Made by a program: the position numbers and the translations under genes
The notes under the pieces: generated by a model
The model's database searches: none
What the model was told of the DNA's origin: nothing
What the model saw: only the letters and a program-made list of their open reading frames with translations
NCBI GenBank assembly: GCA_905178155.1
Contig: CAJINV010000001.1
Coordinates: 8,215,599-8,279,598, forward strand
Length of the DNA: 64,000 nt
Direction: 5' to 3'
From: Amoebophrya sp. A120
Taxonomy: Eukaryota > Protista > Dinoflagellata
Shown: positions 1-43,814 of the stretch, piece after piece
Numbering within the stretch: the stretch's first letter is position 1
Layout: every line of letters starts with the position of its first letter

Positions 1-3000
1 GCCACCTGGGTTCCGCGAATGCGCTCTCTCGGTTCGCTGCGAGTAGTTTCCGTGCCGGCGGAAGCAGGACCCATGTTGTAGTCATTTGCGTTGCCGGGAA
101 CCACACGAGTCTTGGACTTGCGCCCCGTAGGCTTCGTGGCAGCTACGTACTTTATGGACGAGCCAGCGCTCGTGCGAGTGCTGGTGCCTGGAGACGATCG
201 CAGCTCCGAAGAAGTGCTGTGGACGGATCGTGATCCGTCCCCTTTGTTCTCGTTTTTGTTCTCGGCAAACACTCGCAGGAACGCTTGCACATCAGCCTCA
301 TCCAAGTGCATATTTGACCTTGCGCCGTGGCGTTGGAACAGCTTTCGCTTGTGGTTGTGTAACGGCAGTTGATCCGGCTTATTCGGGATCGCTTGCCTCG
401 CCACACCGGCCGCGGATGAGCGACGCACAGGCCCCGGGGTGCCCTGGTTCGACTTGTTCTCGGCGCTTTCTTGTTCCACTTCACTCTCCTCGTTTACTAT
501 TCCCACCTCCTTCGAAGTTTGCTCGAGGTTCGCCTGCGTCGACGATTGCGTGCTCAGCAGGCTGGTCCCCATAGATCTCATCGTCACACCGCGGACGGCT
601 TCCTCTGCGTTGCGCCACACAAAAAACGCCAATATGTCGGAATAGCTGAGGAAAACCTCACAGGCAACAACTTCATGTCTCTCTGCGTTCAGAATCACTG
701 CGGGATCCAGAAAGTCGCGATCTTCTTCATCGTCCTCTCCGTCGGTACTGCTCCCCCTGAAGGACGCAGTTTCCTCGGATATTCTCTCTCTCTTCTGAAG
801 GCTCGTTGTAGTCATGTGCGCCCGATCCTCTTTGTCGCCTTGATGCTGTTCCCGCCCTGCTCGACGGGGGAACAATGTGACGGTGATCCGCACCCAGATT
901 CCGTTGCGGCCCGGCGCGTCGGCTACGGTGACGACGTCCCCTTTTGTCAACAAAAGCCCGTCCTCACTCGCCGTGGTATCCACCACCAAGCGCTGCACGT
1001 TCACCACAAGCTGGTCGCCCACCGACAGGTAGCTGCGGAGGAAGTTTGTGCGCTCCTGCGGGTTCAGCCGGCTGTCCTCGAATTTGCGTGCGTACATCAT
1101 GTTGAAGGGACTGGTGGGGAAAAAGGCGCTGCTGTTGGCCGCGTGCCAGCAGTTCCACAGCGCGTCCTTGTAGTCGGAAAGCTTCCCCGCGATCAGCTCC
1201 CACTTGGAGAAGTGGCTCTTGCGCAAGCACTCCGACATGAAGTTGCGCTCGACAATGATGGACAGCGTCCGGCTGCGGGGGATTCCGTCGAACCCGTTTA
1301 CGAGCGTGATCATGTAATCCAGGCTATCATATGTAAAAACGTACCCACACCAGAGTCAGGATGGGGATTTTTTTTTTTTTGCCCGGCCCCCAATTTCATC
1401 AATTTCAATTTTCAATTTTCAATGATTGTGTGACGGCGGGAACGGCACCCGCCCGCTGTGCTTAATAATGCGCTCCCACGCGCGAACTTCTTTTTGTCTT
1501 TTGCATCACACATGCAGAAACATTTTCAACCCCCTAAACCAACACCTTTTTTCATCTTCTGCCGCCCTCACGCAACAGGACTACTCCTGAAGCGCGGGAA
1601 CAACCCGAAGGTTGTTTTGCATGACAAGTTCTTGCAGCAGGTGCATGCAGCAGTGGGAGATACAAAATTAATTTCAAAACCCTAAACCCGCACAGCGCAC
1701 TGATCCTAGTTAACGTCTAGAGCCGTAAGCCGCGGCAGACGTCCACCAGGGGAGGTAGAGGGAGGCCAGATCACAGTCTCCGTAGGGCGATAAGTGCAGT
1801 AAGCCGCTGCACTGAAAAATAGTAAAGATAGGGCGAGACCACTGTGTATGGAGATAGTTACCCATAGGGGGCGTTAATCAGGTTCGTGTTTGCGTGGTTA
1901 CTAGGCGCCCCCGAAAGGACGCTTTTCCTTCACGTTACTGCCCCCCGAAATATACGGTCGAACTGGATCACAGATACTAGCCGTAGGGCGCGATCGACCC
2001 GAATCGCATTAATAGAGGCTGCGCGACCTGGCGAAGAACATCATATGACCCATGCCGAGGGACTTCAGTGGAAAAATACTCCGGACGCATGTGCAACCTC
2101 GGCCGATGCAAAACGGGCGACCGCTGTAAAATTTGTGCTCTACGATAAAAATAATTTCTAAGTGGTCTCTATGGGATGGGGGCCGTTGAACCCACGATGC
2201 GCGACGACCGGATGGCTGGGCCCACTGCTGGTCTGGTCGTCGAGAGAAGATCCGCAGAGCAGGTTGGGCAGGAACGGCGGCGAGGAGAGGGTCGGAAAAC
2301 AGTGGGCGCGTTTTTGCCGAATCCCGATGTTGTCGTGAACGGCGACCACAGCAGAAATCGTCACCACCGGTGTAACCGCCACCGGAGAGATGTCGACGAG
2401 TACCGCGAGAGCGCCAAAAAGGTCAAGTAGCTGGCTTGGCTTGTTTGACAGCATGAATCCCGCCCGACCGGCTACTGATCGGGGAGTGTGCGCGACAGCC
2501 CGAATCTCGTATTGCGGCGCGAAAACGATCTCCGCCAAGAGGGTGATCGACGACGGAAGCTGGTCGGCAGTTGGGCCCGATGAAGAAAGGTGGTTCATCA
2601 ACAAGAACTGGCTCGTCCAAAAAACGCCGCAGCGTCGCCGGATCGGATGAAACAGCAATCGGGCCCGATGGTGGCAGGGCAGGAAGAAGGCAACCATCGA
2701 CGGGGAACCGCCATCGTGGCGCATTTTCCAGCACCACCGAATCCAACGCGCATGTAAATAAGCCCTGACAAACAGATGAGCACTCAGAAGAAGTGTCCAA
2801 CCGAAAGGCAGCAGCAGAGGAAAAGCGTGGATTCGGGTCGGGGAAAATCTACACGAGATTGGTTGTGCTGCAGAAATGGAAACACGGCCCTAGCCCAATG
2901 ATAACGGCGTAGTCAAATACAGAAAAAGAGAAAGTCCTACTACAGGGCTGACGCGCATGACAAATTCCAACTTCAGTTTAATCCGCTGACGCGCATGACA

Positions 3001-6000
3001 AGTTTCAACCTCAGTTTATTCCGTGTGAGTGCACATAATTGCGGGGTAGTCAGTTTTAGGCGGAGTAGTGCAGCATGGTGGAGGCGCAGCGTCGAGATGT
3101 ACTGCGACAGCCGGGTATCGTGCGCTGCAACTTCAAGGTCGTTCCGCATCTGTCCAGTCGGCCCTTGTGCAGGTGCATGCCAGACGTAGCTCAAAAGATC
3201 TCCGGCGAGTCGCGAACCCGGCATCTCACCCCCATCGGGAGGTGTAGAAGGCCCACACTATCCTGGACCTGACGACCGAGGGGAGCACACCGCTGCGCAA
3301 CTCACCTCTTCGTAGAAAACTGCGGCGCGCCGCTTCGTAACTGCAGATGATGGGCACCACCGATGGCGTTCTGCCCTTAGACGGGTTGCGCGGGGAAGAT
3401 GCCGAAGGGCAAGAAACCGCTCGGGGGCGGTGGTGGTGATTACTTTCCCAGGACGGTAATCTGGAGGAAGGCCGGGAAACCGATAACCCCCGCGATCGTA
3501 GAGTAGCGTCGGGCACAGCGGCAAAACCATCTGATACTGAATCCAGTGAAGAGCAAGCGCGAAGACCATCTTGTAGTGGGGGCTACTCCTTAGTTTTGAG
3601 ATGCAGAAACTCAAAGCACTTATTTTAGAGCGGGACCAGGCGATGCGTACAGAAACAGAAAAATGAGCCGTTTTCGTCGAAATTTCTTGTGATTTCGGGA
3701 TGAAAAAACTAGCGTAGCATGGGGACAAGGCGTGGCGGTTGGAAAAGTAAAGTACCAGAAAAATGGAGTATACCACCCGTACACAATACTCAACACAGAT
3801 AACCCGACATTTCAAACAATACTAATGTAAAACTAAGGAAAGTAGTAGGGTCATAGACTTAGAAATTAGAAACCTAAGCGGGTCCGGTAGGTACTACAAT
3901 CTAACTGCATCCTTCCGCGCGGGTCGATATTTTCCACCGGGGGCGCCAAAGCAGTCGGGCCGCCACATCCCTAACACCGGGTAGCATCGAGTCATCATGG
4001 TCTTGTCGATGGAGCTTGGAAATGTGTCGGTAGCGGAAAACGTAGTAAACGCCCGGGACGGCGAATCCGCGTAATCGCTGCAGGTCCGCGTTAGCGAGCG
4101 ATGTCCGCGTGAAAATAATCTTACGGAAGCAACAACGACAACACACAAACGAATGAAAGCGCCACAGGTCTCTTCGTCCTCCTGTCACAATCACGTCTCT
4201 TTACATGTCTGACAATCAAACTCATACAAGAACTGGCGGCGTTTATTATCTCAATCACCTCAAATTCACCCTAGGCACACATGACAAACTCGTGCTCAAC
4301 CACACCCGCTCTGCATATCCATGTGCATAGAAGACAACATAAAAAAAAACCCATCTACAACGTCCTGGAGAGGAAGTTTGTATAGGTGGGGTGAACATCA
4401 ATAAATGCGAGGGGCATGGCGAGGCGAGAGCTGGTTTTTGAATTGTGCGCAGCCAAACGATAACAGACACAGTAGCTCATTATCAATTTTTGAACAGGAT
4501 ATCTGCTGAGCAATAACAGAAATCTTTTGAAGCACAAACATGAAGATACATAAACTTTAACCAAATAATCCGCAGCCATGTACATCGTGGCGCTGCTTGA
4601 TGACCAAATCAGGGTGCTCCTGTGCGTGCCGTTAGCCCGACGGGTCCTGGGTATTCGGGGGCGGTATCGATTGGGAGTCACTAGCAACAGCTTGGGACAC
4701 TCCGGCACCGGTGCGCTGCCGCTTCGGGGCAGGGTCGGTCTCGCTCTCCTTGTCATTCCCAGGTGTTTGCGAAGCGAGCTTCTCCATCCCCTCGCGCACC
4801 AGTTTCGCCAGACGGTACTTATGGATTTTGTCTTTGATAGATTTGAGGACCAGCGGCATTTTGAAACTGCGTTTGGGCCACTGGACAAACGCATCTCGCC
4901 CCGCAATCTCGGTAACCGCAGCGGGTACCGTGTATCGATTGGAATCGTCGAGATCGGGGTGTTGGTAAATGTTGACTGCTTTTACTTGCTGCTGGTAGAG
5001 CCACAGCCGCCCGGACCAAGCGGAGCAGGATGACCAAAAATTTCGGTATGTTCCGGTGTTTTTGATCCTCGCGTTCACCTGGACGCCTTCGATCACCAAC
5101 GCGGGCCTGCGCTGGATAACGTCCGTAAGGAGCAACAAATGCTCCATCGAGCTGGAAGCACAGGTCAAAAAACGGAGATCAGCGGCAGTGGCGGGGTCGG
5201 GGATGTCGGCAAAGTCGTAACAATTCACTGCCCAAAGAATTTGCCCCTCGCTATTCAGAGCGACAGCGCCGCTAGTCGCCGGGCAGCGGGTGATCACAAC
5301 GGCGCCCTTGAGGTCCTGCGGCGTGACAGCACCGGCACTGACATGTGGCATCGGGAACAGGCGGTGGAGCTGCGACACTACAGTGTCACTTGGTCCCGGT
5401 GGCGTCGTCACAAGCGGCTGCGCCCCGATAGTAGAGGCCGCGATCTTGTCCTCCAGAACACGATCGGCATAGTGAATAGCATTCACTTTCTGGATATCAG
5501 CAGCACTGAAACCTTGGGGGCCGAAAATAGGCACCTTTGTTGTGATCGTGCTCAAAATGTCGTCTTGACCGGTTAAACACGACCACTTTCCGGAGCAACT
5601 CCGCGCCGTCCGCACAGCAGCCACCCAGGGATCATGAGCATCAAGGACTTGGGAACAAAACGCCAACTTGTACAGTTGGTTGTTGTCCAATTTGTTCAGC
5701 TTAATAAGTTCCGCCACGTGTGAGTTGGCGTAACCGCAAAAATTGAGAACGGAGAGCCCGACCTTGTTCAAAAAGCGCAACCAGTCGACATTTTCGTATA
5801 ACCTGACAGCTACCACTGTTAGGTGCGCGACGGAGGACCCGTAAGCCCACATTCCCACCATGCGGATCAACATGCCGTCAAGAAACTTCGCACACTGGAA
5901 AACGTGTTCTGCTTTTGCGCGCGATAGTCCTAACCGGCTGTGAAGTTGTAGGGCCATCGTTTCCGGTGGTAATCGGTCGACGTTAAACGCACACCCCAGC

Positions 6001-9000
6001 AGTAGCGTGCTGGTCTTGATACGGGGGGCCATTTGGAAGGGGTGGAGGTTTTTGACGACAGTTTCGCGCATTTTTTCCACAAGTTCGCCGTAAGTCTTCG
6101 CCCCCACTGCAGAACGGAGTCTCGGACTACCGAACATGATCTCGAATTTGCCCCCGCCCGCTAGAAAAGTCCCCATTTTCCGAAATTCGATTTGTTCGAA
6201 CTTGGTGATGGTGTCGAAGATAATGCCGACGGTACCACTGGAGACGTCCACGGGCTTGTACCGGAACCCGGTCCCCCGATCGTCCACGCACGTCCCGGTG
6301 GTTGCGGGGGGGGCCTTGCCGGTGGGTGGCACGGAATTTGTTGCAAAGTGGCTGGTCATCGTCACCTTAGATTTAGAACACGACAACTGGCCCGCGGGTT
6401 GGTAGAAGTACTGCGGGTCGACGTCTGTGGACCAGGCGTAATTCTTCCAGGAGTGAGGGTCGGAGTCGTCGGCCTTCGCTTCCGCAAGCAGAACAGCGGC
6501 GGCCCTCGTGGTTCTGGTTTTGCAGAGGCCCCCGGTCTCGGGGCAGTAGCAGCTACACAAGAACCGGTGTAACCGCCGAACCGTGGAAATCGAGAGCAAC
6601 GTGCCCGCAACCATGGTCTCGGTCACCCCCTGCAGCGAATCCGAAAACTTGGACACAAGCGCGTACTCGCGGCCATTGCGTATCAACACTTCTTTATCTT
6701 TGTTGCAAGACAAGAAAAAAAGAAGAGTGCAGGGGTGGGCCCCCGTTAGCCGTAACGAATTCGCGAGACTCACCCAGCTCATTGTGTTGAAGAAGTTGCT
6801 GAAGTCCATGCCGATATAGCACCACATTTCTTCGCTAGATGTCGCCAGATAGTTGTCCAACAGTTTCCACGTCAGAACCGCGAGTGACACACCGGGGCGG
6901 CCACCATGCCCATAAATTGACCAGCACGAACGGTGCTCAGCCAGTCGCATCACCTCCCGTCCGAGTACACCACTGATGACTTTTAAGGCGACACAGGTGC
7001 GAATCACGCCACGGATTTTTTTGATGTCCTGCGGAAGTGAAGTCCCCCCTTTGCCTAACAATTCCATCTGGAGGAACCGCATCTGCTCTGGGACGACTTG
7101 CAAAACATGTCGGGATGGGACGGTCTGGAACTTCAGGAGCATCGTGTTGCAGCTCGCAACAAAGTCCTCAAGGGAGGCGGCGTCTAGAGACTTGTACGCG
7201 GAAGCCCTGACACCGGAAATCCCTTGGGCTTGGGAATTGCAGGTAGCAAGAAAGTCCTTGACTTCTGCAACGGAGATCTGCAAGGGCTTCACACGCTTGG
7301 CAGCTGCGCACAGCTGCTCCTTCATGCGGATGAGCGTGTCCAGCGTGGGTTCGACTTCGAGATGGGCGTGGAGCCGAAGGATGGGACACTTCACAATATG
7401 GCTCTTCCCTACTTCGCAGGCAATCAGCTGCGCGCCGATCAGGAGCCGTTTTCCGGACAAGATGCGGGCTATCTCGCCAATCGGCTTCCCCTTCTGAACT
7501 CCGTCGTAGGAACTTTTCACCTTGGCCTGGATGTCGTAAATCGCATCCTCAATGCGGTGCGTATCAGCTTCCGCACCGTCCGGGTCGAAGTCAGCATTTG
7601 GTCTGTACTCTTTTTCGGCCGTCGCCCAGGTAAGGAAGTCCGAAACGTGGGCCTTCACATCTGGTCGCGCGAGATAGTCGGTGGAGGAGAGTACAGCTAG
7701 ACAGTCTGGGGTTGCCGCTTGGGGGGCCACAGTCCCCGCGCCTGCTTCTGTAGTTTGTTTCGGAGATTTTCGGGACCGCTTCAGCTCCGCTTTTTTCACT
7801 AATCCCGCGTCAACCAAACTTTCCGCCCGCCACATCTCGAACTTCCAGGGGCAATCCTTCGGGGGCAGGATTTTCCTTCGGTAATCCTCCCCGGCCTGCT
7901 GTAATTTTTCCCGGGTGTGGGAGCGGTCGCCCCGGCGTGTAATTATGGTGTAGTTGATTGTTCGTGGGAGAGCTTCCTTCAGGCCGCCAACCGGTTTTAT
8001 TTGGCTGCGCCCGAGATCCGCGTGCGCTGGCATCTGGAAATCATCATATTTCCCGAAAACGTTTTCTGCGGTGATGCAACTGTTGAGGAGTTTTGTCTGA
8101 GCATCGGAAATTCCTTGCGGCTGCGAGTCACTGTCACCGGTTTCAGGGCCGAGCTGGGTGCTAGTAGCTCGGTGGAACGTCTTGATGAGAAGTGCGAGAT
8201 GATCGGTGGTTCGCTCGCGGATGTTCAGATTCAGATTCAGATGCGCTCTCCGGTCTATTTCCGCCGGGGGTTACGCCGTGTACAGCAGGTCGACATCATT
8301 CAATTATTCTAGTCGGGGCGGTGGGCGTTTCCAAAAATGTGAAGAACCCCGCCCGCCCACCTTGTTATTCACATATAAGGAATTGCGCAGGTATACGGCA
8401 TTTTTTCCCGATTTCTTACATTCGTCGCCCGGTCTTGCAGGGCTCTCGCCCTGTTGGCACTTGAGCGGCATGCTGCTGGATGGGGATTTTGCAACACAAA
8501 CCTAGGAGTTTTGTGAGTCACGCATGACAAGTTGCGCTCTGCAGTGTAGTGCAGGTTAGCAAGTGCAACCGCGTCAGAGATTCATCTGCTCATCCTGTTC
8601 ACAGCATCACAAATTCCAAAACACGATTGGAAATGGCTCTCATGGGGATGCGCATTACAAGTCTTCCTGTCTTTGCAAATCTGCATTACAACTCTGGTGT
8701 GGGTACGTTTTTACTCAGGATACAGGCTCTCCTCGCGCAGCTTCAACGAACAGGTCAACCCGGGCGGCGCCACCAGGAGGCACCGGAGCCGATTCTCGGC
8801 GCGGAGCTCCGGGTACTTCTTTGCCAGCAGGAACCCGAGGCAGGCGGCGCACCCAGCGCCGAGCGAGTGCCCCGTGCACACCACCGAGTACGAGCTCGGG
8901 AGCGCGCGGAGGAAGCCTCCACGCTCGAGGCACTTCAGCGCGAAGCGGGCGCAGGACAGAAAGCCTGCATGGACGTACTCGTCCGCGGGCGAGTCGGCGA

Positions 9001-12000
9001 ACAGGCGGGCCGGGGCAATGGCCGCGTCCGAGACCATGTCTTTGGCCGACATGGTGCCGCGAAACCCGATCACCAGGGCGTTGGAGAAGTTGTCCTGGGC
9101 GAAGTAAAACACGGCGCGCTCGCCGCCGCGCGTGTGCGGACTGACGTACAGCAGTTCCACGCCCACCTCCTCGACCGCCAGGCCGTATCCTGAGTAAAAA
9201 CGTACCCACACCAGAGTCAGGATGGGGATTTTGCAACACAAACCTAGGAGTTTTGTGAGTCACGCATGACAAGTTGGACTCTGCAGTGTAGTGCAGGTTA
9301 GCAAGTGCAGCCGCGTCACAGATTCATCTGCTCATCCTGTTCACAGCATCACAAATTCCAAAACACGATTGAAAATGGCTCTCATGGGGAGGCGCGTTAC
9401 AAGTCTTCCTGTCTTTGCAAATCTGCATTACAACTCTGGTGTGGGGACGTTTTTACTCAGGATAGGCCGCCGTCGCTGTTCAGCCGGAGCGTCGGGTCGT
9501 CCTCGGCACTGGCCTCGGACTCCTCATCGAGGTCCCGCAACTTCGCCTCGGTGTTCTTCATTTTCTCCTGTCCGAAGCCCATGCGGAGGGCCCGCGTCTC
9601 CTGGAGCGTCTTCAGCTTGGCCTGCCACTTCGTGCGCTTGGCAGCGCGCACCGCCGCACGCTCGCGCTTCTCCGCCAGCAGCTCCGCCTCCCACGCCTCC
9701 TTCAAGGCCTGGAAAGCGGGAATCTGACGCTCCAGGGGCGACAAATACTCCCAGTCTAAACGCTTTATCGTGAAGGCGGCGCGCGCCCGCGCTAACTCAT
9801 TCGACACGGTTTCCTCCAGGCCTTGCAAGTTATCCACCTTCGCCTTCGTTGTAAAGTCTTCCACCATAGAATTTCTCAGCTCGACCGCGGAAGACGGCTC
9901 CAACTGTTGGCTTGCCCGCCGGACCGGCTGCAAGAATTCCAGCGTAAGAATGGTATCCGGAGTAGAATCACTACGCGTCAAGTTGGCTTTCCCCTTCGCC
10001 TGTTTTTCGATGGTATAAATCGATGCATGTTGTATACAACGTTGGTTTCTCGAAAATGACAAAAAAGAAAGCGGTAGCGGTTTAGGGTTTAGGGTAGCAG
10101 ATGTCTTTTTTTTCTTACATACTGGTAGTTCTTTTTCTTACATACTGGTAGTTGCCGTTGCCATTCCATTGTTCTAAAAGATGATGATGAACTGTAAATA
10201 TGATCCGCGTCAGGAAGAACAACAACGAGGAATTCATCAGTTTTTCTACCTTCGGAGCAGCTTGCTTGTTCCCCTGTTGCAACGCCAAGTCGACGATGTT
10301 TGCAAACGGACTTCCTCTCAAGAGCCGGAAGACGCCGGGCCTTCGGTTTTCGTTTCGTTTCTTTCGCGTTTCGCGGATGGTGTGCAGCAAGCCGGCAGCT
10401 GTTGCGACCGCCACCTTGCCGACACCGTCTTTGCATTCCTGTGCGTAGGAGTGGAATACCACTGGTAGCGGCTTGCCGTCGACGAGTTGTAGCGTATCCC
10501 CGACCAAGATCCCGTGCTGGTCGGCCACGCTGTGCGGTACCACGTTCGTCACCTTCTGCGTGTAGGGATCCCACATCGCACCGAAATTGTCCACCTCACC
10601 TGCGTTGTCGCTCAGAGTCACTTTCAGGAGGCCCCGCGACGCTCGCAGGCGCTGTACTTCCAGATCCTGAGAATGCTCCTGTGCGACCGAGAGCCGTTTT
10701 GTATGCCTGCACAGGCGCAAAACGGTGAAGATGGCCGCAACCCAGCGAATTTTTGGCTTTGAGTAGTCCGACCATTTGCCCAGCTGCTCCGTCAAGTGCT
10801 CGTAATGCACAGCCACGTAGCCGAGGGCGAAGCGGCCCGCCATGACGCGCAGTAACGGCGCCACGAGCGACTTGTCGTCATCCTGCTGCTCGAGCCTCTC
10901 GGTCCAGCTGCGCGAACTGTAGAGGTCTTCCGCGGTTAGCGTAACCAGGTCGGCCGAGCCGACCGCGTGATTCCGGATTACCGTGCCGGCGTCAAAGTCC
11001 TCCAGTTGGTCGGCGTACGTCTGCAGCATCTGCCGCTGCCGGTACTGCAGTAGCTGCATGTAGTCCGTCAGGTCGCGTTCCCAACTCTGCTCCTTTTCCG
11101 TCTTCGAGATTATTCTCACCACCCGAAGTGCCTGGCTTCCGAGTGCCCGACCACCGTGGACAGCGCCGTGCAGATGGTCTGCCCCGGGGAGAGCGCTGGC
11201 GAGGTTGTCGACCGATCGACCGAAACTGGATCTACTTTGCTGTTGTTCTACTACGAGCCCTCGGGACGCGCGCTCAAGCTTTTGTAGCTCCGCCTCCTCG
11301 TCTGCATCCGCATCCCCCGTCAAGCCAACCTCTTGCTGCATTTCGGTCAACACTCCGGGGCGCTTCCTGCGTCGGTTGCGGCAGCAACAGAGCAGATCCG
11401 TGAACCGGTCCCACAACGCAACTTTCCGCGGACCCTGGTAGCCGTAGGCGATCCACGCATAGTTGACGAAGGTGAGCAAAAACAGCATCGGGTCCAGGTC
11501 CTCTTTCAAGTTGATCCGCCGTCCCTTTTCCAAGAACGATCCCGGCAGCGCGCCCGAGAACTCCTTGCCGCGGGCCAGCGCGACCCCGCAGCGGAAGTCT
11601 CCAATCGTGAGCTCTTGTACGCCCAGGAAGCCCATCACGGACCGCTCCACGCGGGAAATATTTTTCCCCGCGACGCGATACAACTCCAGTCCCTTGCGCA
11701 GCATTCGGAACCGGGAGGGTAGCAGCGACCGAAACCGCGACCGCTCCTGCGGCGTGCGCTGCTCCACATCCTCGCGCAAAACCCGCTCCTGGAGCACCCT
11801 CCGAAACGCGTACTCCTCCTTTGGCGACTCGGTGGTGCGGTCACTGAAGCTGGCCAGGACGGCAAAAAGGACAAAGATGGCCCGTTCGATGAAGATCAAG
11901 CCGCTGTGCACCATGATCGCAAACCAACTGTTCGCGACCAGACGCACATCCACTTCGGGGTCGTGGATCACCTGCCGGTAGTCCCCGCCAACCGAGTGGT

Positions 12001-12472
12001 CGAGCAGCACGTAGTCGTTCGTGCTCGTGTAGAAAAGGTAGCCGCTATCCTCGTTGTGGTGCACGTAGAGCCAGCTCCACGACTTGGGGTCCGCTTTCGG
12101 GTCACAAAAGGTGAGTATCGGCTCGGGGCTCACTTCCAGGTCGTAGACGAGGAGCGCCATGTGGATCAGGCCGAAGTAGACCCGCAGTTCGACGAGGAAC
12201 GGAAGACGCGCACGCAGCCCCTGTTTGTCGTGCAAGGCTCCCCGCTTGGAAAGCTTGATCAGTACCAAGTCCAGGGCAAGCATAGCAAGCAGCAGCACGA
12301 GCTGCAAGTATCCTGTGCCCCATTTGCCACCACAGCCTATTTGCAGCTGCAGGGTGTACAGATTAAACAAGGCCAAGATCGACAGACCCCAGACCGAATA
12401 CGGAACCACAATCCAGAGCTCATCGAGGCTTATGAGCCCGTAACGTCGACCGAAGACTGTAAACGGCGGCAT
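1..12472 (-). CDS. Diacylglycerol-lipase-like (Lipase_3) membrane protein, spliced. Inferred exons 12472-10250, 9999-9470, 9185-8728, 1324-<1; the 3' end runs off the window.
   Basis: The N-terminus MPPFTVFGRRYGLISLDELW resembles the DAGL start and is followed by hydrophobic helices. There is a PDZ-like segment (VTNVVPHSVADQHGILVGDTLQLVDG, ~10480-10570). Catalytic motifs are FRGTMSAKDMVSD, VHAGF and TGHSLGAG. Removing 9186-9469 gives SDGG|LAVEEV. Removing 1325-8727 gives REESL|DYMITLVNGFDGIPRS, the DAGL D-x-x-PR motif. A GT-AG intron is inferred at 10000-10249. Confidence 0.85.
2947..3022. repeat. 38-bp tandem duplication in the LINE 3' region
   Basis: GCTGACGCGCATGACAAATTCCAACTTCAGTTTAATCC is followed by GCTGACGCGCATGACAAGTTTCAACCTCAGTTTATTCC. 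Confidence 0.85.
4632..8033 (-). CDS. Divergent non-LTR reverse transcriptase with possible C-terminal RNase H-like region (frame open upstream to 8270)
   Basis: RT motifs occur in LINE order: GGRPGVS, IGMDFSNFFNTMSW (cf. DFSKAFD), LQGVTETMVAGTLLS (cf. GVPQGSxLSPLLF), TCVDD at 6279-6290 (cf. YADD), GGKFEIMFG, LLLGCAFN. The segment SGAVALNSEGQILWA...SMEHLLLL...LVIEG loosely resembles RNase H. Confidence 0.8.
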   Translation of the reverse strand: MPAHADLGRSQIKPVGGLKEALPRTINYTIITRRGDRSHTREKLQQAGEDYRRKILPPKDCPWKFEMWRAESLVDAGLVKKAELKRSRKSPKQTTEAGAGTVAPQAATPDCLAVLSSTDYLARPDVKAHVSDFLTWATAEKEYRPNADFDPDGAEADTHRIEDAIYDIQAKVKSSYDGVQKGKPIGEIARILSGKRLLIGAQLIACEVGKSHIVKCPILRLHAHLEVEPTLDTLIRMKEQLCAAAKRVKPLQISVAEVKDFLATCNSQAQGISGVRASAYKSLDAASLEDFVASCNTMLLKFQTVPSRHVLQVVPEQMRFLQMELLGKGGTSLPQDIKKIRGVIRTCVALKVISGVLGREVMRLAEHRSCWSIYGHGGRPGVSLAVLTWKLLDNYLATSSEEMWCYIGMDFSNFFNTMSWVSLANSLRLTGAHPCTLLFFLSCNKDKEVLIRNGREYALVSKFSDSLQGVTETMVAGTLLSISTVRRLHRFLCSCYCPETGGLCKTRTTRAAAVLLAEAKADDSDPHSWKNYAWSTDVDPQYFYQPAGQLSCSKSKVTMTSHFATNSVPPTGKAPPATTGTCVDDRGTGFRYKPVDVSSGTVGIIFDTITKFEQIEFRKMGTFLAGGGKFEIMFGSPRLRSAVGAKTYGELVEKMRETVVKNLHPFQMAPRIKTSTLLLGCAFNVDRLPPETMALQLHSRLGLSRAKAEHVFQCAKFLDGMLIRMVGMWAYGSSVAHLTVVAVRLYENVDWLRFLNKVGLSVLNFCGYANSHVAELIKLNKLDNNQLYKLAFCSQVLDAHDPWVAAVRTARSCSGKWSCLTGQDDILSTITTKVPIFGPQGFSAADIQKVNAIHYADRVLEDKIAASTIGAQPLVTTPPGPSDTVVSQLHRLFPMPHVSAGAVTPQDLKGAVVITRCPATSGAVALNSEGQILWAVNCYDFADIPDPATAADLRFLTCASSSMEHLLLLTDVIQRRPALVIEGVQVNARIKNTGTYRNFWSSCSAWSGRLWLYQQQVKAVNIYQHPDLDDSNRYTVPAAVTEIAGRDAFVQWPKRSFKMPLVLKSIKDKIHKYRLAKLVREGMEKLASQTPGNDKESETDPAPKRQRTGAGVSQAVASDSQSIPPPNTQDPSG
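9186..9464. mobile_element. Introner family A, copy 2 (intact, 279 bp), non-canonical intron
   Basis: 32-bp TIR TATCCTGAGTAAAAACGTACCCACACCAGAGT with one mismatch. Direct repeat GGCCG at 9181-9185 and 9465-9469. Excision restores the lipase frame, and no register across the direct repeat gives GT-AG. Confidence 0.95.
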
Positions 12473-13363
12473 GATTAAGACTATTTTTCTTCCTGTTACT
12501 GTTTCAGTACTTATCCGTCGCTGTTGCCAATAAAACGTTTTTATCAACACCTTGTTGTCAGTCCCTCATGCAGGCTGTCCTCATTTTTGGAACTAGGTGG
12601 GTGTAGTAACGTAAGTACTAAGTAACGTTTCTTGTTTCAGGTGATCGCCTACGCAACCTAAACTCGGCTTTGGAAGTTGCGTAAAGAAGGACCTCAACTG
12701 AGGCCCTCGATGAGAATCGAGGCGGCCATTTGTTTCTTTTTTCGTTTGCTGTTCTCGCCAATAATGATGGGCGAGCTTGTAGTGCGATTTGCATAAAAAC
12801 GACCTCGACAATTGTTTCGATTCCCCGTGGCTCAGAATCTTCGCAACCGCCATCTTCTCACAGCAAGCGATATTTGACGAGCGAGAGCGTAACTTGCACT
12901 TCACGATTGACGATGGCGAAACCCGATTCGATTTGGTTCGCTTCCTGCAAATGCTATCAATGACGATGCCTCTCAATGAATTCCGTACACAACGAAAGCG
13001 ACGGATTCCAAAACATCTTATAGCGGTTTGAAGACGCCAACGTTTGCAACAGGAGAGGAAGGGATGGATCTGCGCCGGCTCTGAAAATCACACTGTTCGA
13101 AACACACGTGGTCTCAAGTAGCAGCAGGCAAAATCACCGTTGTAAACGAAATTCGCATCCTCCTTGTTGAATACCCTCTTCGTGTTCACTTACAAACTTC
13201 TTCTCAGAAACATACACAAAAACTGTAGCAAAAAAATGAAGCTCTGGTGCTTACTCAACGTCAACGCCCAGATCGATGGATCGTTTAAACAAAATCCTAC
13301 TCCTAGAAGAAACCCGTATTGGTACGTATCCGCTGCATTTGCTTGTGCAATAGGTGCCTATCA

Positions 13364-27500: not shown

Positions 27501-29554
27501 GCAACCAGTTCCGGGAGAGCTTCGCCAACCACAATTTGATTCCATCTCGCCCGGGCGTCTTTCCTCTTTAACTTCACGTGCTCCGCGATGTTTTCTGGAA
27601 AGTACAAATTCTGGCGGTTCTCCAAAACCGCAAACGAGGCATTGAGCTGGAAGGGCAGCCCTGTTTTCGCAAGCGGCAAAGGCAAGAAGTTACAGACAGC
27701 CGATTCAAAGGAGTTGTTGTCCAATCTGAACGCGACCCCGACTATTGGCAGCTCTCTTGCTTTGGTAGCGGCTTCCACTCGCTCTTCATCGGTCAAAACT
27801 TCGAAATATACCAGTGCTGAGACACTGTACTTCGTCGCGCCGGTGTAAGATGATACTTCAGGTCCAGCTCCAACCGTATTTGCAGGACCAAGTTCTTTTA
27901 CTTCAGCGGTGTACTTGAAGGACTTCACTCCCGTAAAGTTGTTTTCCGCAGCCCACTCGCTGTCAACCGCCTCATGGAGCTCATCGTAAGTCTCGAAGTT
28001 TTTCAACGCCGCGAAGACATCCGCGTACGTGCAATGCCCCCGGCCTCGGAGGGAGCGACCTCCACTACTCTCTCTGCTTGCGGATGCGCAGCGGCCTGAC
28101 GACGAACCATCCTCCAGTCGTTGGCGTTTCGGAGACGAGGACATCGGGCGAGAAAGACTAGTACCATGAGCAGTAGCTTCAGTTCTTTGCTTTCCCGCTC
28201 CTGTGTCAGCTTCTCGCGGACTCAGATTCTCGACATTTTCATGTGCGTCACCGTGGTCGTCAGGTTCATATCTGAAAGTCGTTTCCAGGTTCCAGCGACC
28301 GGAGCATGCAATCGCCAACCGCTCCAATTTCATCGGCGCATGCAGGAGACGCTCGGCCATCTTCTTCGGCATTTCACGCAGGAATTTCTCTTCCTTGTCC
28401 ACCTGCAGACAGCCGAACTCCGCAAATGCTGACGCATGACTATCCTTGCGAAGCGGTAAAATAAAGCGCGTCCCTCTTCTCGCGGAGGGCAGGAGCAGGA
28501 CTCCTTCCGCGGACAACAGCTCCTCTGCGTCAACCAGCGGGACCCAAATCTTCTCATGGAAATCCTTGCCAAACCTCACTGCCATTTGACTCTTGCCGAG
28601 TTCCCGAAGACGTTGCCGGTCCTTCTCCTTAGTCAAGTCGTGGAGAAAAGCCCTGTCCGCCACAACCAGCTCTAGCGGGTCGGTTACGTACACCATGTGG
28701 CCAAACACCAGGACAATAACGTCACTGAAATGGAAGAAAGACTTCGCCCCACATCCTTTGCTGCCCAAAGTGGTTGGCTTGTCGCTGTTTGTGGAATTGA
28801 TAAGTCACACGAAAGATCCAGGTCTACCTCGATCGCGTTCGGGCGAACCACGCGCAATGAACCAATTGTGATTCCGCTTCCGAACGCGTGAGCGCTCCAA
28901 GTACAGCCTGAACCTGTAGGACAGTAAACAATAATGAGTCAAGCTTCCGAGCACGGAGTGGGAAAAATTTATATATACTTACCCCTTTCCGCTGTCCTTG
29001 ATACGTTCCCAGCTGTCGAGATCCCCCAGAGTGAACTCTCCGTCGTTCCAAACTACGAGGCTCGCGTCGTGCAACTCCATGCTGAATTCGCGAGCACCGG
29101 CATCAACAGGAAAAATCCCCCCTCCCCATATCAAAACGAAACTGCTGATGCTAGATTTGCGTACACAAATCCGATTTGTCTTGCAGTAAGGCAGCGCAGC
29201 CAGATCCTCGGCCTAAGTAGGGGCGTTCGGGTCTAGTTGCTTAGCATTACAAACGGCTGTCCCCTAGGCGCAACAGCATGCCAAATCGGTTCCATAATGG
29301 TATCGAAGCTTCTGCGCTTGTTTTCTTGCAAGACAGACGCGACTTGTGGTCTCAAATCAGCAACACAAATTTTCGGAAACATACTTTTTCGATATGGGGA
29401 GGGGGGATTTTTCCTTACAATAGCCGGCATCCGACGCGTTCTGGAGAAACTCCTGGAGCACATTTTCAACCGTGCCCGGGTAATCCCGAAGAATTCCGGC
29501 TATCTGCTTCCCCAACGAGGGGACCTTCATGCCCTGACCAATATCATACGACAT
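18512..29554 (-). CDS. Sacsin-like protein (two HATPase-like sacsin repeats, U-box, DnaJ, HEPN), spliced
   Basis: Repeat 1 reads ILRDYPG..VLQEFLQNASDAG|AREF..LVVWNDGEFT..GSKGCGAKSFFHFSD after removing 29101-29427 and GT-AG intron 28785-28982. Repeat 2 reads ENYGQ..TIEDYSG..REHAQNFDD..DGRFGIG. U-box: TCPISMDF..FDRECI..HPLTR. J-domain: LIVHWHPDK. HEPN-like C-terminus: FDSACYYAFSAVHKLLLG. The exon structure around 26580-26960 is only partly resolved. Confidence 0.85.
29101..29422. mobile_element. Introner family B (322 bp) in the sacsin-like gene
   Basis: TIR core AGGAAAAATCCCCCCTCCCCATATC at 29108-29132, inverted at 29391-29415. Direct repeat ACCGG/GCCGG. Excision gives QNASDAGAREF in frame. 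Confidence 0.92.
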
Positions 29555-39132: not shown

Positions 39133-42100
39133 CTAACTGTAGCGCGACGTGCCAACAACCGGCTTCCTCGGTGGGGTACGAGACCGAGATCGCGAACGAC
39201 CACGACCTCCAAAATGTCCGCTTCCGTAATAAGGACCTCCTTTTATTCCATAGCTTTTATCGTAAGGGCCGTCATACCCGCCTCTGTGCCCGCCCTTGTA
39301 GCTACTGTCGTGGTCCACCCTATCGCGCTCCCGATTGCGCTCACGGTCACGGTCACGGTCCCGATCCCGGTTGTCATAGGTCGAACTCTCTTTGACAGCT
39401 CGGGGAGAGCGGTCCCGGTCGCGTTCTCGCTCTTCGTAGCGATCGCCCATGTGGCGGTCTCGGTCTTCGTAGCGGTCGCCTTTCAAGCTATGAAATTGCA
39501 AAAGAGGCGGGGGTGGCCCTGGAAACAAGAAAGCGAATGATTCGCTTTCCTCAACTTCACTTTATAAAAACCTTTATCTTCAAATCGACTTTGCGGCTGC
39601 TGTAGATGTAGTCGATGCCAGCTGCTGCACATCTGTGTTCGCAAAAGAACACGCAGCGACAGACAGTCTGATTAACTCAGACAGGTAGCCGGTATGATGT
39701 TGCACTTACTGTTTGATTGATATCATAAACGCAACCGCAAGGTGGATGCAAGAATCTTAAGATTTCTCCATCTTCGTTCTCTTAGGTACTATGCCAGTTC
39801 CAAGATAAATTCTCTTTGGCAGCGGCGCCATTCGCGCTTGCCGATGCACGGCAGGTTAGTCGGTTATGCCGTCGCTCATAGATAGTATTATTGAGGACCA
39901 CGGACTTGCTAAGTATGCTAAAGAGAGGCTAAGCTGTTCAACCAGGACCCTGACCCGAATAGTATTCGGGTTCGTACCCCTTGTAGGCGTAGTCGTAGTA
40001 GCGGTCCTCGCGGTCTCCCTTGTAGCCACTTTTATTCCTATCGCGGTCATCGTAGTAGCCCCCGGGCCTTCCGCCCTTGTAAAAATCGTCATACTTGCCC
40101 TTCCCCTTGTAAAAATCCTCATAGTAGAACCCTTTGCCTTCGTAGCGGTCCCGGCGGGCTCGAGCGCGTTCCCGCTCCTCCCTCGGGTCCAGTCCCTTGC
40201 CCTTGCAATACTGCTCGAAGCACCACTTCCCGAACTCGCGATAAAACTCCGCCCCGGGCTGAAAATCCATGTACTTGTGTCGAGCCTGGTCGCAATAGCC
40301 CCGTTCGTTTTCCCACAGCTCCTCATACTCGCGGGCCATAAACAAACCGCGCAACAACATGCGCTTTCCAGACTTTGGGTCATCCTTACTAATATCGTCG
40401 TTGCGCTGCTCCACAATACTCGAGATGGCCTGCATCTGTAGAAAATGGGAAAAAGACATCATGTCAGTGGAAAGACGAGCGGAGATGAACAGTAGACCAC
40501 GCGACGCTGCGGCTATCCGAACCGAGCATGCCAACAATGAAGCGCCGCGCGCAGCGTTCACATCCGCGGCAGGAGTGCGCATTTACAGGGACAAACGACC
40601 TCCCGAGCTCAAGAACGAATCGAATATGGATTCCAAATTCTACAGCCTACCTGATTCGAAGTCGAACCACGGCGGTGTGGCATTAAAAGTGCGCTAAAAA
40701 GTAAGCGCCTTTTCGGAAGAGGAAGAGCAGCCGGGATGTGGATGAAATCTTAAAATATAAAATCTCAATCGCGGTTTCCCAAACACAATCTTTACCTGCT
40801 GCCAATGCATTTTGGTGGGTCGATACCCCGGGTGGACTTTCAGCCACAACTTGGCGTACTCTCGGAGTTTTTCGTGTCGGGTGGTCGGCCCCGATCCGGC
40901 CTGCTCCTTCCGGTCGGCAGCCTCGTTGCGGTGCTTCTGCCGTTCGGTCCGGTGCACAGTCGCGTTCCGTTTCCCAGACAAGGCTTGCTCAAGCATTTTC
41001 GGGTCCTTTTCCCATTCCCTTTGTTCCTTGATCCACGCTCTTTCCGCTCGCTGGTCCTCGCGAGCGAGACGGCGCTGGCGCTGCTTCTCCTGCACTTCCT
41101 GGATCCTTTTCCGGAGAACTTCTTTCAGCGAATAGCGCCCGACCTTCAACTGCTGTCCGAGACTGTCTGCAAGCAAATTTTGTACATCAGCCCCCACGCC
41201 TGGTAAAATGTCGTGAACGCCGGCTAGTATCTCATTCGAGGACGGCAAGTCCGTGTTGATATTCTCGAAGAACTCCTTCTCTTTTTTCTGATTCTCTTCG
41301 TTCCCGCCCTTCTTCAGCAGCGGCGTGTCTTGCGCGCCGCAGAAGAACCGGCGCTTGACGTCCTCTACCATCCTCACCGACATTCCCGTGTCGAATGTCA
41401 TCAAGGAGATGAGGGCATTGATCAAGTCAAACCCCAGCGAGCACACCGGATCCACATCCTTCGCTGCGGGAAACCAGTGGCCGTCGATCACCCCGCGCGC
41501 TTGCGCGTCGTCAAACTCCGAGGTTGCGAGGTGGCTCAGGACCTCACACACCCCCTCTTCCACCCCCTTCTTGTTCCAGAACGCCTCCGCGCCCCTCTTC
41601 TTGCTCCTGCAATCAAAAAAGGCGCGGACTTTGTTTTTCAAATTTGTCCGATTTTCCTTCTCCATAATCTCTATCAAAGTGAAAAAAGCCCCCACCCCAT
41701 ATCGGAAACGGAAGATGCGCGAATTTGTGATGCTGTATTTGAGGCGTGAGGCGTAACATGATCGCTCTCGGAAGAGGTGGAACAGTCAGCAGCCCGAACT
41801 CATCGGTTTTGCCAGGTCCACAACCCCCTGGGGGTGAAATACGGGGGTGGCTCCGCGTGGCGGCGATCTAGGATCGCTACCTGGAAGAAGGAGTGGGAGC
41901 CTCTTTTCAGATGTACTCCACAAACCTAAGCCAACCACTGCCCCCGCAGTCACAAACTCACACCCGACATCGAGAACCGATGCGAGGGAGACCCCGGCAA
42001 CCCTTCCCTGCGACCGAATACCGAGAGGGATAAGTGGACCCCTCAGTTTAGACGGAAGCAGAGGCATAGTCCCGGAGGGCACAAAGTGTACGAATGCTCC

Positions 42101-43814
42101 CCCTAGTGAAAGCCGGGTCGTTTCAGCACTATGAAACAGTGTGGCAATCAACCAAGGCGCTCGACTGTACTCAGCGGCGAGTACGAAGAGCTAGGGACGT
42201 GAGAGACACCTTCCGCGCGACATCCCGACCAGGTAACCCGTATCCCCCCGCCTCAGGGGACCGGGGACCAAACAGTCGTGGCAGCAAAATGAGCGAACCA
42301 GACAGATGACAAAATGGGCGAACCAGATATGCTGTATTTGAGTACACAAGTCGACTTGTATTGCTAGAAGGCCAAGAGACGAAGCTGCGGCCTAAATTGC
42401 AGGCACTCTGTCATGCTGTTTCCCACTTCCAGTTGCCTCCTGTCATCCTGGAGCTGCAAGGCTTTCCCACGCTAGACAGCACTACAGTCCGCATCTTTTG
42501 CCGTCTAGCATCACAAAGCTGATTTGTGACCCCAAATCTGCATCACAGATTTCCGTTTTGATATGGGGAGGGGGCATTTTTCATTGTAATACTCTCCCGG
42601 TATACTGCGCGGTCCATCCCACCGCGGTGCGCGTCTCTAGCCCGAATTCTCCTCGCCTCGCAGAGTTCCTTGTTCGGCGAATAATCAGACATCTCAGACA
42701 TGTCCGAGAGCGGCTCTGAATCCTCTTTCGCTGCCGCCTTCTCAGCAGGGTGACCCGTTGGTCCTGGGTCACACCCATTCAAAATTGCGCACAGCCGCCG
42801 GCGCACTTCCATCATGGAATCCTGGGCATCCTCGTCGTCGTACGAACCTCTGCGTAAATCCGCAGTGGGGGCACCTTCCGACAGCTGCGAATCCGACACT
42901 TCCTCGGAATCCGATTCTTCGTCCTCGTCTTCATTGCTCTCACCTGCTTTGGCCTCGTCTTTCTTGCGCTCTTTCGAGGCGCGCTTGTTCTTGCCCCCCT
43001 CGGCTTCGGACTCCAGGGTTGCGTCAAAAAGCGTCATCATCCGCTTCACTTTTTCGCGCATATCCGGGTCTTCGTGCGTGCGCATCACCTTCTTTATCTT
43101 TTCGGATTCTGCCACATAGATTATCCTCTCCAGCTCCTCGCGCCACTCCTTTCCCCCCGAACCCTTGCCGGCGCCCGTCTTTCCCTCGCCCTTCCCGCCC
43201 TTCGCGTCGCCATGTTGGTAGTAGTGCTCGGGTCCCCCTCGTCTCCGGGCTGCACTGGAGGATCTTCGTCGACCTCGGCTTCTTCTCGGACCACCCGGGG
43301 AACGGCCGCGGGAACGCGGCCTTGCTTGCCGCCGGCTGTCTCCCGAGCGCGGACGCTCTCTTCTGCGGCCGGGGGAACCACGACGGGGCCCGGAAAGGAG
43401 GGTCCGTGACAAGCTACGCGAAGTGGATCTGGCCCTGCGCGCCGCAGGTGGCGGGCCGCGGGGTGCGGACACTCGGCGCCTGCTTGTCCCACTTCGGGAT
43501 CTACTCCTACCGGGGGACGCGGATCTGTTGTTCCCTGGAGGTGCTCGTGGTGGGGACCGGCGTCGACCGCGGCTTCCGCTGCGGCGCCGCGGAGGACCTA
43601 CTGTGTCAGGGGGAGGTGGTGCGGGGGCGCGTCCCCGCGAGTCCGGCCTTTTCCAGAACTCCTCATACCCGGCCCGCTTGTCGCGCTCCGGCTGCTTGGA
43701 CGGAGACCGCGCGCGCGGGGGCTGGCGCTCCAAATCCAGTTTCGCCCGCTCTTCCACGACGACGTTGTCGTTCTTGTCCACATCCACATCCTCGTTCTCG
43801 CTCAGATCACTCAT
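39133..43814 (-). CDS. RS/RD/RG-rich putative nuclear RNA-processing protein, spliced
   Basis: ORFs 42543-43859, 40694-41695, 39938-40582 and 39133-39528 join in frame through the introner at 41672-42596 and two GT-AG introns (HWQQ|MQAI; GPG|PPPP). Tracts include RSRSRS, RDRDRD and KGKGK. Confidence 0.7.
41672..42591. mobile_element. Family-B-related introner carrying a nested 585-bp insertion
   Basis: TIR TATCAAAGTGAAAAAAGCCCCCACCCCATATC pairs with GATATGGGGAGGGGGCATTTTTCATTGTAATA. Direct repeat ATCTC/CTCTC. Without the insert the element is ~321 bp, like its siblings. Excision gives VYRE|IMEK. Confidence 0.9.
41744..42328. mobile_element. Nested non-coding insertion with 14-bp TSD (SINE-like or truncated retroelement)
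   Basis: ATGCTGTATTTGAG occurs at 41730-41743 and 42329-42342. The right end is a ~25-bp tandem repeat containing CAAAATG(A/G)GCGAACCAGA. No TIRs. Confidence 0.75.

Follow-up and report, generated by a model that had tools for sequence, protein, structure and literature searches.

A 64,000-nucleotide (nt) stretch of the genome of the marine parasitic dinoflagellate Amoebophrya sp. A120 (GenBank assembly GCA_905178155.1, contig CAJINV010000001.1, positions 8,215,599 to 8,279,598 of the forward strand; hereafter the window, to which coordinates refer unless another contig is named) carries a lipase gene interrupted by introners, which are non-autonomous DNA transposons with terminal inverted repeats (TIRs) that are themselves introns in coding sequence. 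One of these introners is in turn split by a 7.1-kilobase (kb) long interspersed nuclear element (LINE), and this nested anatomy is close to certain. The insert belongs to a very divergent LINE lineage, lacks the endonuclease and lies in the introner arm at the 3′ end of the intron; it is an even bet whether the lineage accumulates in introners because the paired ends of the introner survive the insertion and would still allow the nest to be spliced out.

Architecture of the nest

The split introner consists of a first segment of 47 nt (1325-1371), which in the sense of the gene is the 3′ end of the intron, and a second segment of 232 nt (8491-8722), which is the 5′ end and retains an intact inverted-repeat arm (introners and duplications are given without strand). 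Together these segments amount to 279 nt, the exact length of an uninterrupted sister introner that lies in the same gene with a 5-base-pair (bp) direct repeat of its own (9186-9464), and the rejoined sequence is identical to the sister at 268 of 279 positions, leaving 11 mismatches. The 5-bp direct repeats of the split introner, representing its own target duplication, match exactly at 1320-1324 and 8723-8727. The arms are 32 bp long, the left one with three substitutions at positions 5, 7 and 8, and the termini fit the Amoebophrya motif of TAT, seven nucleotides and an A run, as given in PMC7789003. The 279-nt family is represented by two copies in the window and two on a metagenome contig designated L001, and these are 83-96% alike.

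The LINE insert between the two segments spans 1372-8477 (7,106 nt, or 7,119 nt counting one copy of the duplication) and is flanked by a 13-bp target-site duplication at 1359-1371 and 8478-8490 that extends in neither direction. By chance a given junction would show an exact 13-mer about once in 10^8, so the junction anatomy is not accidental. The duplicated sequence occurs three times in the window, the third being a single occurrence within the empty sister introner. No long terminal repeats are present in the insert (no self-similarity at E 1e-3), which ends instead in an A tail on the minus strand (1372-1380), read on the forward strand as part of a T run of 13 nt (1368-1380). The original prediction, made from the sequence alone, had described a family-A introner split 47 bp from its left end by an insertion of about 7.1 kb, with a target-site duplication of about 13 bp, surviving arms and direct repeats (three substitutions in the left arm) and the sister copy as the pre-insertion state, and in all of these respects it holds; of the run that makes up the poly(A) tail it reported, four nucleotides belong to the duplication and the tail proper measures 9 nt (13 nt including the duplication). 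The insert enlarges a 279-nt introner 26-fold, with an unenlarged sister in the same gene, and the empty sister proves that the TIR introner was there first and that the LINE came afterwards as a passenger.

The order of events that would account for this arrangement begins with a miniature DNA transposon, which entered the lipase exon and produced the 5-bp duplication that is still visible. The LINE would then have been copied in by target-primed reverse transcription, with the first nick placed after the T run, 47 nt inside the arm; the duplication, the tail and the position of the nick are the observed hallmarks from which, by analogy with established LINE biology, this mechanism is proposed, and the predicted target-primed insertion into a pre-existing introner within the lipase catalytic domain is to that extent supported. 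The endonuclease, visibly missing from this copy, may have been lost by the LINE, or the element may have been mobilised without an endonuclease of its own. Misassembly is a further way in which such a structure could come about, in that a repeat-induced misjoin could place a LINE between halves of different introner copies; introner copies are abundant and 81-97% alike, and the locus is known from the assembly alone. A misjoin would not, however, build a 13-bp duplication together with a tail at the right polarity, nor would it give halves that total exactly 279 nt and share a 5-bp repeat by which the ancestral protein is restored, and an artefact is therefore hardly credible.

The host lipase gene

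The host gene lies on the minus strand and was modelled from slices of the window as four exons separated by one canonical 97-nt intron and two introners, giving 1,561 codons with zero stops. Exons 1 and 2 (9465-12469, as 12469-10146 and 10048-9465) are separated by the 97-nt GT-AG intron, and precise removal of the sister introner joins exons 2 and 3 in frame. Exon 3 (8723-9185) contains the GHSLG nucleophile motif and scores over the Pfam cut-off for Lipase_3 (PF01764; E 2e-12, profile positions 1-103 of 140), and exon 4 (3-1319) opens on the strand and the Asp motif that belong to the core of class 3 lipases. Taking out 7,403 nt joins the GHSLG exon to the exon with the catalytic Asp, as had been predicted, without creating a stop, and exon 4 remains open for 439 codons up to the window edge.

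Homologues were sought with exon 3 in frame among proteins of 269-2000 residues, which yielded 12 matches, 11 of which were aligned. The precise join aligns with the closest lipase homologues without a gap across the junction, the strand and the Asp motif, which indicates that precise removal restores the ancestral protein. The column of the Asp motif is common to the host protein and the named diacylglycerol (DAG) lipases, relatives that are 27-40% identical to it, and the catalytic Ser and Asp are both present. Among the best homologues the names are those of eukprot gene models or, for one that is 47% identical, an Amoebophrya A120 label, which together with the one-strand arrangement of the genes and the introner termini fits an Amoebophrya-like organism, and three lipase homologues are AT5-labelled or eukprot gene models; none of the 12 matches in the size range searched (best 70% identical) is the annotated product of the host gene itself. 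The likeness to sn-1 DAG lipase and lipase class 3 (PF01764) lies in the GHSLG and Asp motifs; the host protein differs in being longer, in a PDZ-like match below the cut-off, and in that its His motif was not located. The PDZ-like match (E 0.002) is upstream of the lipase core, within 10118-12565. The region of the canonical 97-nt intron (10049-10151) shows a 23-nt tandem duplication over the donor and a telomere-like CCCTAAA doublet, a motif that is also encountered at 1532 and 1680 in the 3′ region of the LINE on the opposite strand.

A divergent reverse transcriptase

The insert contains a stop-free open reading frame (ORF) of 1,212 codons (4632-8270, minus strand) that is almost invisible to sequence comparison. 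Pfam returned no family for it at E 1 and again none at E 10, searches of the PDB by sequence gave no match, and a word-indexed protein search retained none of 7,994 candidates. An exhaustive HMMER search was the only type of search to detect relatives, 18 of them at E<=0.001, and an Amoebophrya label was found on seven of the eight that were looked up. A single-sequence fold was unusable, with a predicted local distance difference test score (pLDDT) of 38.6, and the structure was instead modelled from 15 sequences (pLDDT 69.8, predicted template modelling score 0.68). The top Foldseek matches of this model are LINE-1 (L1) ORF2p (E 3e-11) and then R2, and VIA gave Z 16-17.5 over about 500-550 residues at a root-mean-square deviation of 4.5-5.1, starting at L1 residue ~247, which we take to lie directly after the L1 endonuclease domain. 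Identity to solved reverse transcriptases is 10-12%, and the Asp motifs of the ORF (near 6806 and 6290) align with YVDD-type motifs of the relatives. On the strength of the modelled fold the ORF is a reverse transcriptase of the class lacking long terminal repeats (non-LTR) and of LINE-1/R2-like type.

Full-length relatives possess about 300 additional N-terminal residues with endonuclease motifs and with weak Pfam endonuclease matches below the cut-off (E 4e-4 and 0.017). Homology of the window ORF begins, at 8222, at the last endonuclease motif of these relatives, and since the AP-like endonuclease that an autonomous element of this type requires is absent, this LINE copy is defective rather than complete. 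The first 255 nt of the insert in its own sense (8223-8477, minus strand) resemble neither the relatives' endonuclease nor anything else, and the copy is either 5′-truncated with filler or an internal-deletion derivative. The prediction of a LINE with a reverse transcriptase ORF consequently stands with regard to the non-LTR reverse transcriptase as recognised by its fold; it has to be amended in that there is no Pfam or PDB sequence signal, the endonuclease is missing and 3.25 kb of the insert are non-coding. An ORF endonuclease, a KADD catalytic motif and an RNase H had at first been assigned, and turned out to be wrong or unproven once the relatives were aligned. For RNase H and ORF1 markers, the window ORF gave only atlas leads under 0.9. 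Homology of the AT5-labelled gene model P0004, which is fused to a SNARE exon, starts at the same residue as the window ORF, hinting at a recurrent endonuclease-less form of the lineage.

The non-coding 3′ region (1381-4631, minus strand; 3.25 kb) is without coding signal, and no hidden gene, tRNA head or Rfam family was found in it. Nested introners were also sought there, giving five candidates compared with one to seven in shuffles, none beyond chance. The region is likely to be a long 3′ untranslated region (UTR), with 3′ transduction as the alternative; the former is favoured by the relative on L001, whose non-coding 3′ DNA runs for at least 1.7 kb with the tail not reached. The window holds one LINE copy within its 64 kb, and neither copies of the LINE nor of the 279-nt introner family were found in the viral or prokaryote contigs searched. 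The failure of Pfam to register the lineage means that counts probably understate how much of these genomes it occupies.

Further nests and a possible preference for introners

Metagenome contigs were scanned with a four-sequence protein alignment, and among 262 pattern matches two were confirmed, representing the single locus L001. The relative at L001 has a full-length ORF that is 28% identical to the window LINE, and it is the only relative whose surroundings were available. Preceding it are 257 of the 279 nt of the same introner family that hosts the window LINE (216 of 257 identical to the sister), with a 5-bp repeat at L001 positions 5419-5423; the break comes 22 nt short of the end of this introner, and beyond it lie 1.4 kb of non-coding DNA and then the full-length ORF. 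The upstream host frame has a coding signal and reads into the introner. The contig continues for another 8.3 kb, in which no right arm was found, and no ORF1 candidate was seen on L001. An intact copy of the 279-nt family lies 2.5 kb upstream of the broken one in a SpoU methylase gene, in which two intact introners (L001 positions 2431-2580 and 2635-2913) are 54 nt apart. The family is found both in the window and on L001, its members in the two being about 84% identical, although such families have been described in PMC7789003 as strain-specific.

A second nest in the window (41672-42591) concerns an introner of another family, 321 nt in length, that is split by a 585-nt insert (41744-42328) flanked by a 14-bp duplication at 41730 and 42329. 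When rejoined, this 920-nt element can be aligned colinearly with another member of its family, and taking it out precisely brings two ORFs together in frame. A short tandem duplication (17-18 nt, period 25-27) stands at the start of both the 585-nt and the L001 insert, and the shorter insert is possibly a passenger similar to a short interspersed nuclear element (SINE). In total 2 of the 11 introners of the window carry inserts with 13-14-bp duplications. In all three nests the distance from the break to the intron's 3′ end is 22-72 nt, and the two LINEs run in the sense direction of the host gene with the tail facing the near arm.

These cases bear on the suggestion of the original prediction that introners serve as landing sites for retrotransposons. 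L001 was found by protein similarity alone with its context ignored, and the window copy was ascertained on the nesting trait, so that the two of two LINE copies with known context that lie in introners include one chosen for that trait. All 11 introners make up 5.3% of the host DNA of the window and the 279-nt family 1.0%; of a crude estimate of 18.3 kb of non-coding DNA the shares are about 16% and about 3%, respectively. As a single trial, L001 would fall by chance into the same family with a probability of approximately 0.03-0.1, and into any introner with one of approximately 0.15-0.3. From these sequence data introners are likely to be favoured landing sites for the LINE, and we lean slightly towards a real enrichment. 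The same lineage would have landed in the same introner family in another assembly, with the left junction visible and the right one off the contig, and a preference could stem from choice of the subterminal arm by the endonuclease, from survival of those insertions that miss exons, or from both.

Several points count against this preference. Only L001 is free of ascertainment, and with a second family copy 2.5 kb away the family may simply be frequent there; neither the duplication nor the right end of the L001 insert lies on the contig, and an unrelated element could separate the break from the ORF. The sites of the two LINEs differ in arm and in distance from the terminus (34 nt in one case and 22 nt in the other), which does not resemble a strict target site. 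The 585-nt insert lacks an A tail and is similar to neither LINE. Exact repeats of at least 12 nt number 97 in comparison with 31-46 in shuffles, a background against which insertions outside introners are uncountable. The predicted role of introners as landing sites thus gains two further cases (L001 and 41672-42591); targeting itself is inferred from the three cases and is not separated from survival. The most far-reaching version, in which a Pfam-invisible LINE clade of Amoebophrya-type parasites and a short passenger target the subterminal arms of introners, and the multi-kilobase nest is removed from coding genes by non-canonical splicing under the guidance of the hairpin, is doubtful.

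Possible splicing across the nest

Removal of the nest with one repeat would have to be non-canonical if it is precise, as none of the six registers offers GT-AG or GC-AG. The 32-bp arms are predicted still to pair and would bring the exons together; their duplex has an energy of -47.8 kcal/mol in the split introner and -55.9 kcal/mol in the sister, and the longest perfect competitor of the arms within the insert is 8 nt. Precise removal of the element with one repeat gives an open join at seven of eight introners tested, and also in a ninth (41672-42591). The lipase exons around the nest are undecayed. We put the chance that the lipase gene is still spliced at useful levels across the nest a little below even.

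A number of observations speak against splicing of this kind and against an intact lipase. An in-frame GT-AG alternative exists, with the pair 8724/1323 adding 3 nt and therefore one codon, and as a result the inverted-repeat-defined, non-GT-AG splicing across 7.4 kb that the original prediction raised may operate but is not forced. The 3′ end of the sense-oriented LINE could shorten the host transcript. The stop-free LINE ORF implies an insertion so young that even a dead gene would not yet show decay. The catalytic His is also at issue, in that nothing in the 260 residues after the junction corresponds to the DH motif of distant homologues, and the His motif of named DAG lipases was not found in the window protein or in its closest homologues.

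That the gene is rescued by canonical splicing, using a GT formed by repeat and arm and an AG formed by arm and repeat at the cost of one added codon, is improbable; on this reading the three arm substitutions removed an upstream out-of-frame AG. In addition to 8724/1323 there is a second in-frame GT-AG pair (8715/1323, adding 12 nt), a branch-like pentamer lies 36 nt from the acceptor end along with a short pyrimidine run, and the same gene has a canonical intron. Such pairs nevertheless arise easily, as an in-frame GT/GC-AG pair is present within 40 nt at all seven elements with an open join; the geometry of the repeat alone yields this pair 1 time in 16, and the sister introner has GC-AG options only. 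With regard to the substitutions, 3 of the 11 differences from the sister fall within the terminal 8 nt (1325-1332), where an out-of-frame AG is lost and an in-frame canonical acceptor is left. The probability of such clustering is 0.002 by a post hoc calculation, which lends the canonical route some support, although clustered substitutions possibly reflect a single mutational event or a polishing error.

It is somewhat less improbable, though still unlikely, that a young LINE fell into the introner by chance and disabled the allele, its sense 3′ end or its length blocking the lipase transcript. The event is recent, as judged from the stop-free LINE ORF and 96% identity to the sister, and the LINE is in the sense orientation. 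Introners make up 17% of one Amoebophrya assembly of which 40.6% is coding, according to PMC7789003, and hence about 29% of its non-coding DNA, and with several lipase homologues per genome (three AT5-labelled or eukprot gene models) a loss may be tolerated. In opposition to these points, the unbiased relative at L001 is situated in the same family and not merely in any introner, and both introner ends as well as the 5-bp repeats are preserved. Moreover, PMC12130899 lists A120 families with units of 250-305 nt and entries in the element-end column of 4.4-7.1 kb, one of them with a LINE peptide match, which may represent long annotated members. Safe-harbour splicing, like targeting, is inferred from the three cases, and the nesting of a LINE in an introner is a matter of direct observation. 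If targeting and hairpin splicing are both true, introns would be defined by their paired ends at any length, and the stretched introner beside its unstretched sister constitutes a ready-made experiment for distinguishing between paired ends alone and a canonical route.

Relation to known introners and nested LINEs

The introners described from Amoebophrya by Farhat et al. 2021 (PMC7789003) have inverted repeats, direct repeats of 3-5 nt, lengths of 200-320 nt and precise non-GT-AG boundaries, and non-canonical splicing of short introners with such inverted and direct repeats was already described there. The same source puts non-GT-AG introns in the tens of thousands, did not detect U1 small nuclear RNA and left open how such introns are removed. 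The window elements agree with these introners in repeats, termini, length, precise non-GT-AG borders and the setting in a co-oriented gene block, the long ORFs of the window genes all being on one strand. They differ in that the 7.4-kb LINE-holding composite exceeds the size range of that study, which restricted its intron analysis to 40-1000 nt and whose text nowhere contains the word 'nested'.

Gozashti et al. 2025 (PMC12130899) catalogued multi-kilobase and retroelement-related introners, including non-LTR families of A120 and TIR-bounded elements with retro-like ORFs. There the retroelement is the element that forms the intron, whereas the window LINE arrived afterwards as a passenger in a TIR introner. 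Some of the A120 rows in that catalogue, with a short TIR unit, a multi-kilobase span and a LINE or Gypsy peptide match, may be nests of this type, and if the LINE targets introners it is suggested that some of the catalogued 'retrotransposon introners' are nests as well. The introner arm motif was not found in the supplements searched, including Dataset S10. The literature searched yielded no description of an introner that contains a nested LINE, with subscription papers, bioRxiv supplements and figures mostly outside the search.

Among other eukaryotes the closest parallels (PMC4494074 and PMC6719617) are Tx1 of Xenopus, which inserts in the non-autonomous piggyBac element Tx1D, and the crocodilian Tx1-Mar LINEs and SINEU, which sit in Mariner-N4_AMi and have been read as sparing the host. 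The likeness consists of a LINE, possibly with a short passenger, inside a non-autonomous DNA transposon, and the two target positions of Tx1-Mar, of opposite orientation, resemble the different arms used here. In contrast to these systems, the target transposon in the window is itself an intron in coding sequence, so that safety would hinge on splicing; the reverse transcriptase of the LINE is invisible to Pfam and the LINE is likened to Tx1 by nesting and not by clade, and the preference is drawn from two LINE copies and not from a genome-wide count. If the LINE does target introners, hiding in transposons of the Tx1 type would extend to hiding in coding genes.

Other features of the window introners

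Five introners have one mismatch in the 5-bp direct repeat (29101-29422, 41672-42591, 46638-46946, 47922-48225 and 51832-51975), and one introner begins with CAT and not TAT. The introner at 54073-54283 has an exact 5-bp repeat, and its removal opens no minus-strand frame over 150-nt flanks; it may sit in a UTR or beside a short exon.

The 9-mer GCATGACAA occurs 13 times in the window (1619, 2955, 2993, 8522, 9264, 30662, 46763, 49670, 49719, 50552, 51889, 54212 and 63669), with nine occurrences in introners of unrelated families (including that at 51889, in a 144-nt element), three in the 3′ region of the LINE and one elsewhere. On L001 it is found at 2504, 2666, 2827, 5502, 5663, 6978, 8318, 13900 and 13907, and is present in both non-coding ends of the LINE there. 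Both orientations occur, and the 9-mer is possibly a DNA-binding site.

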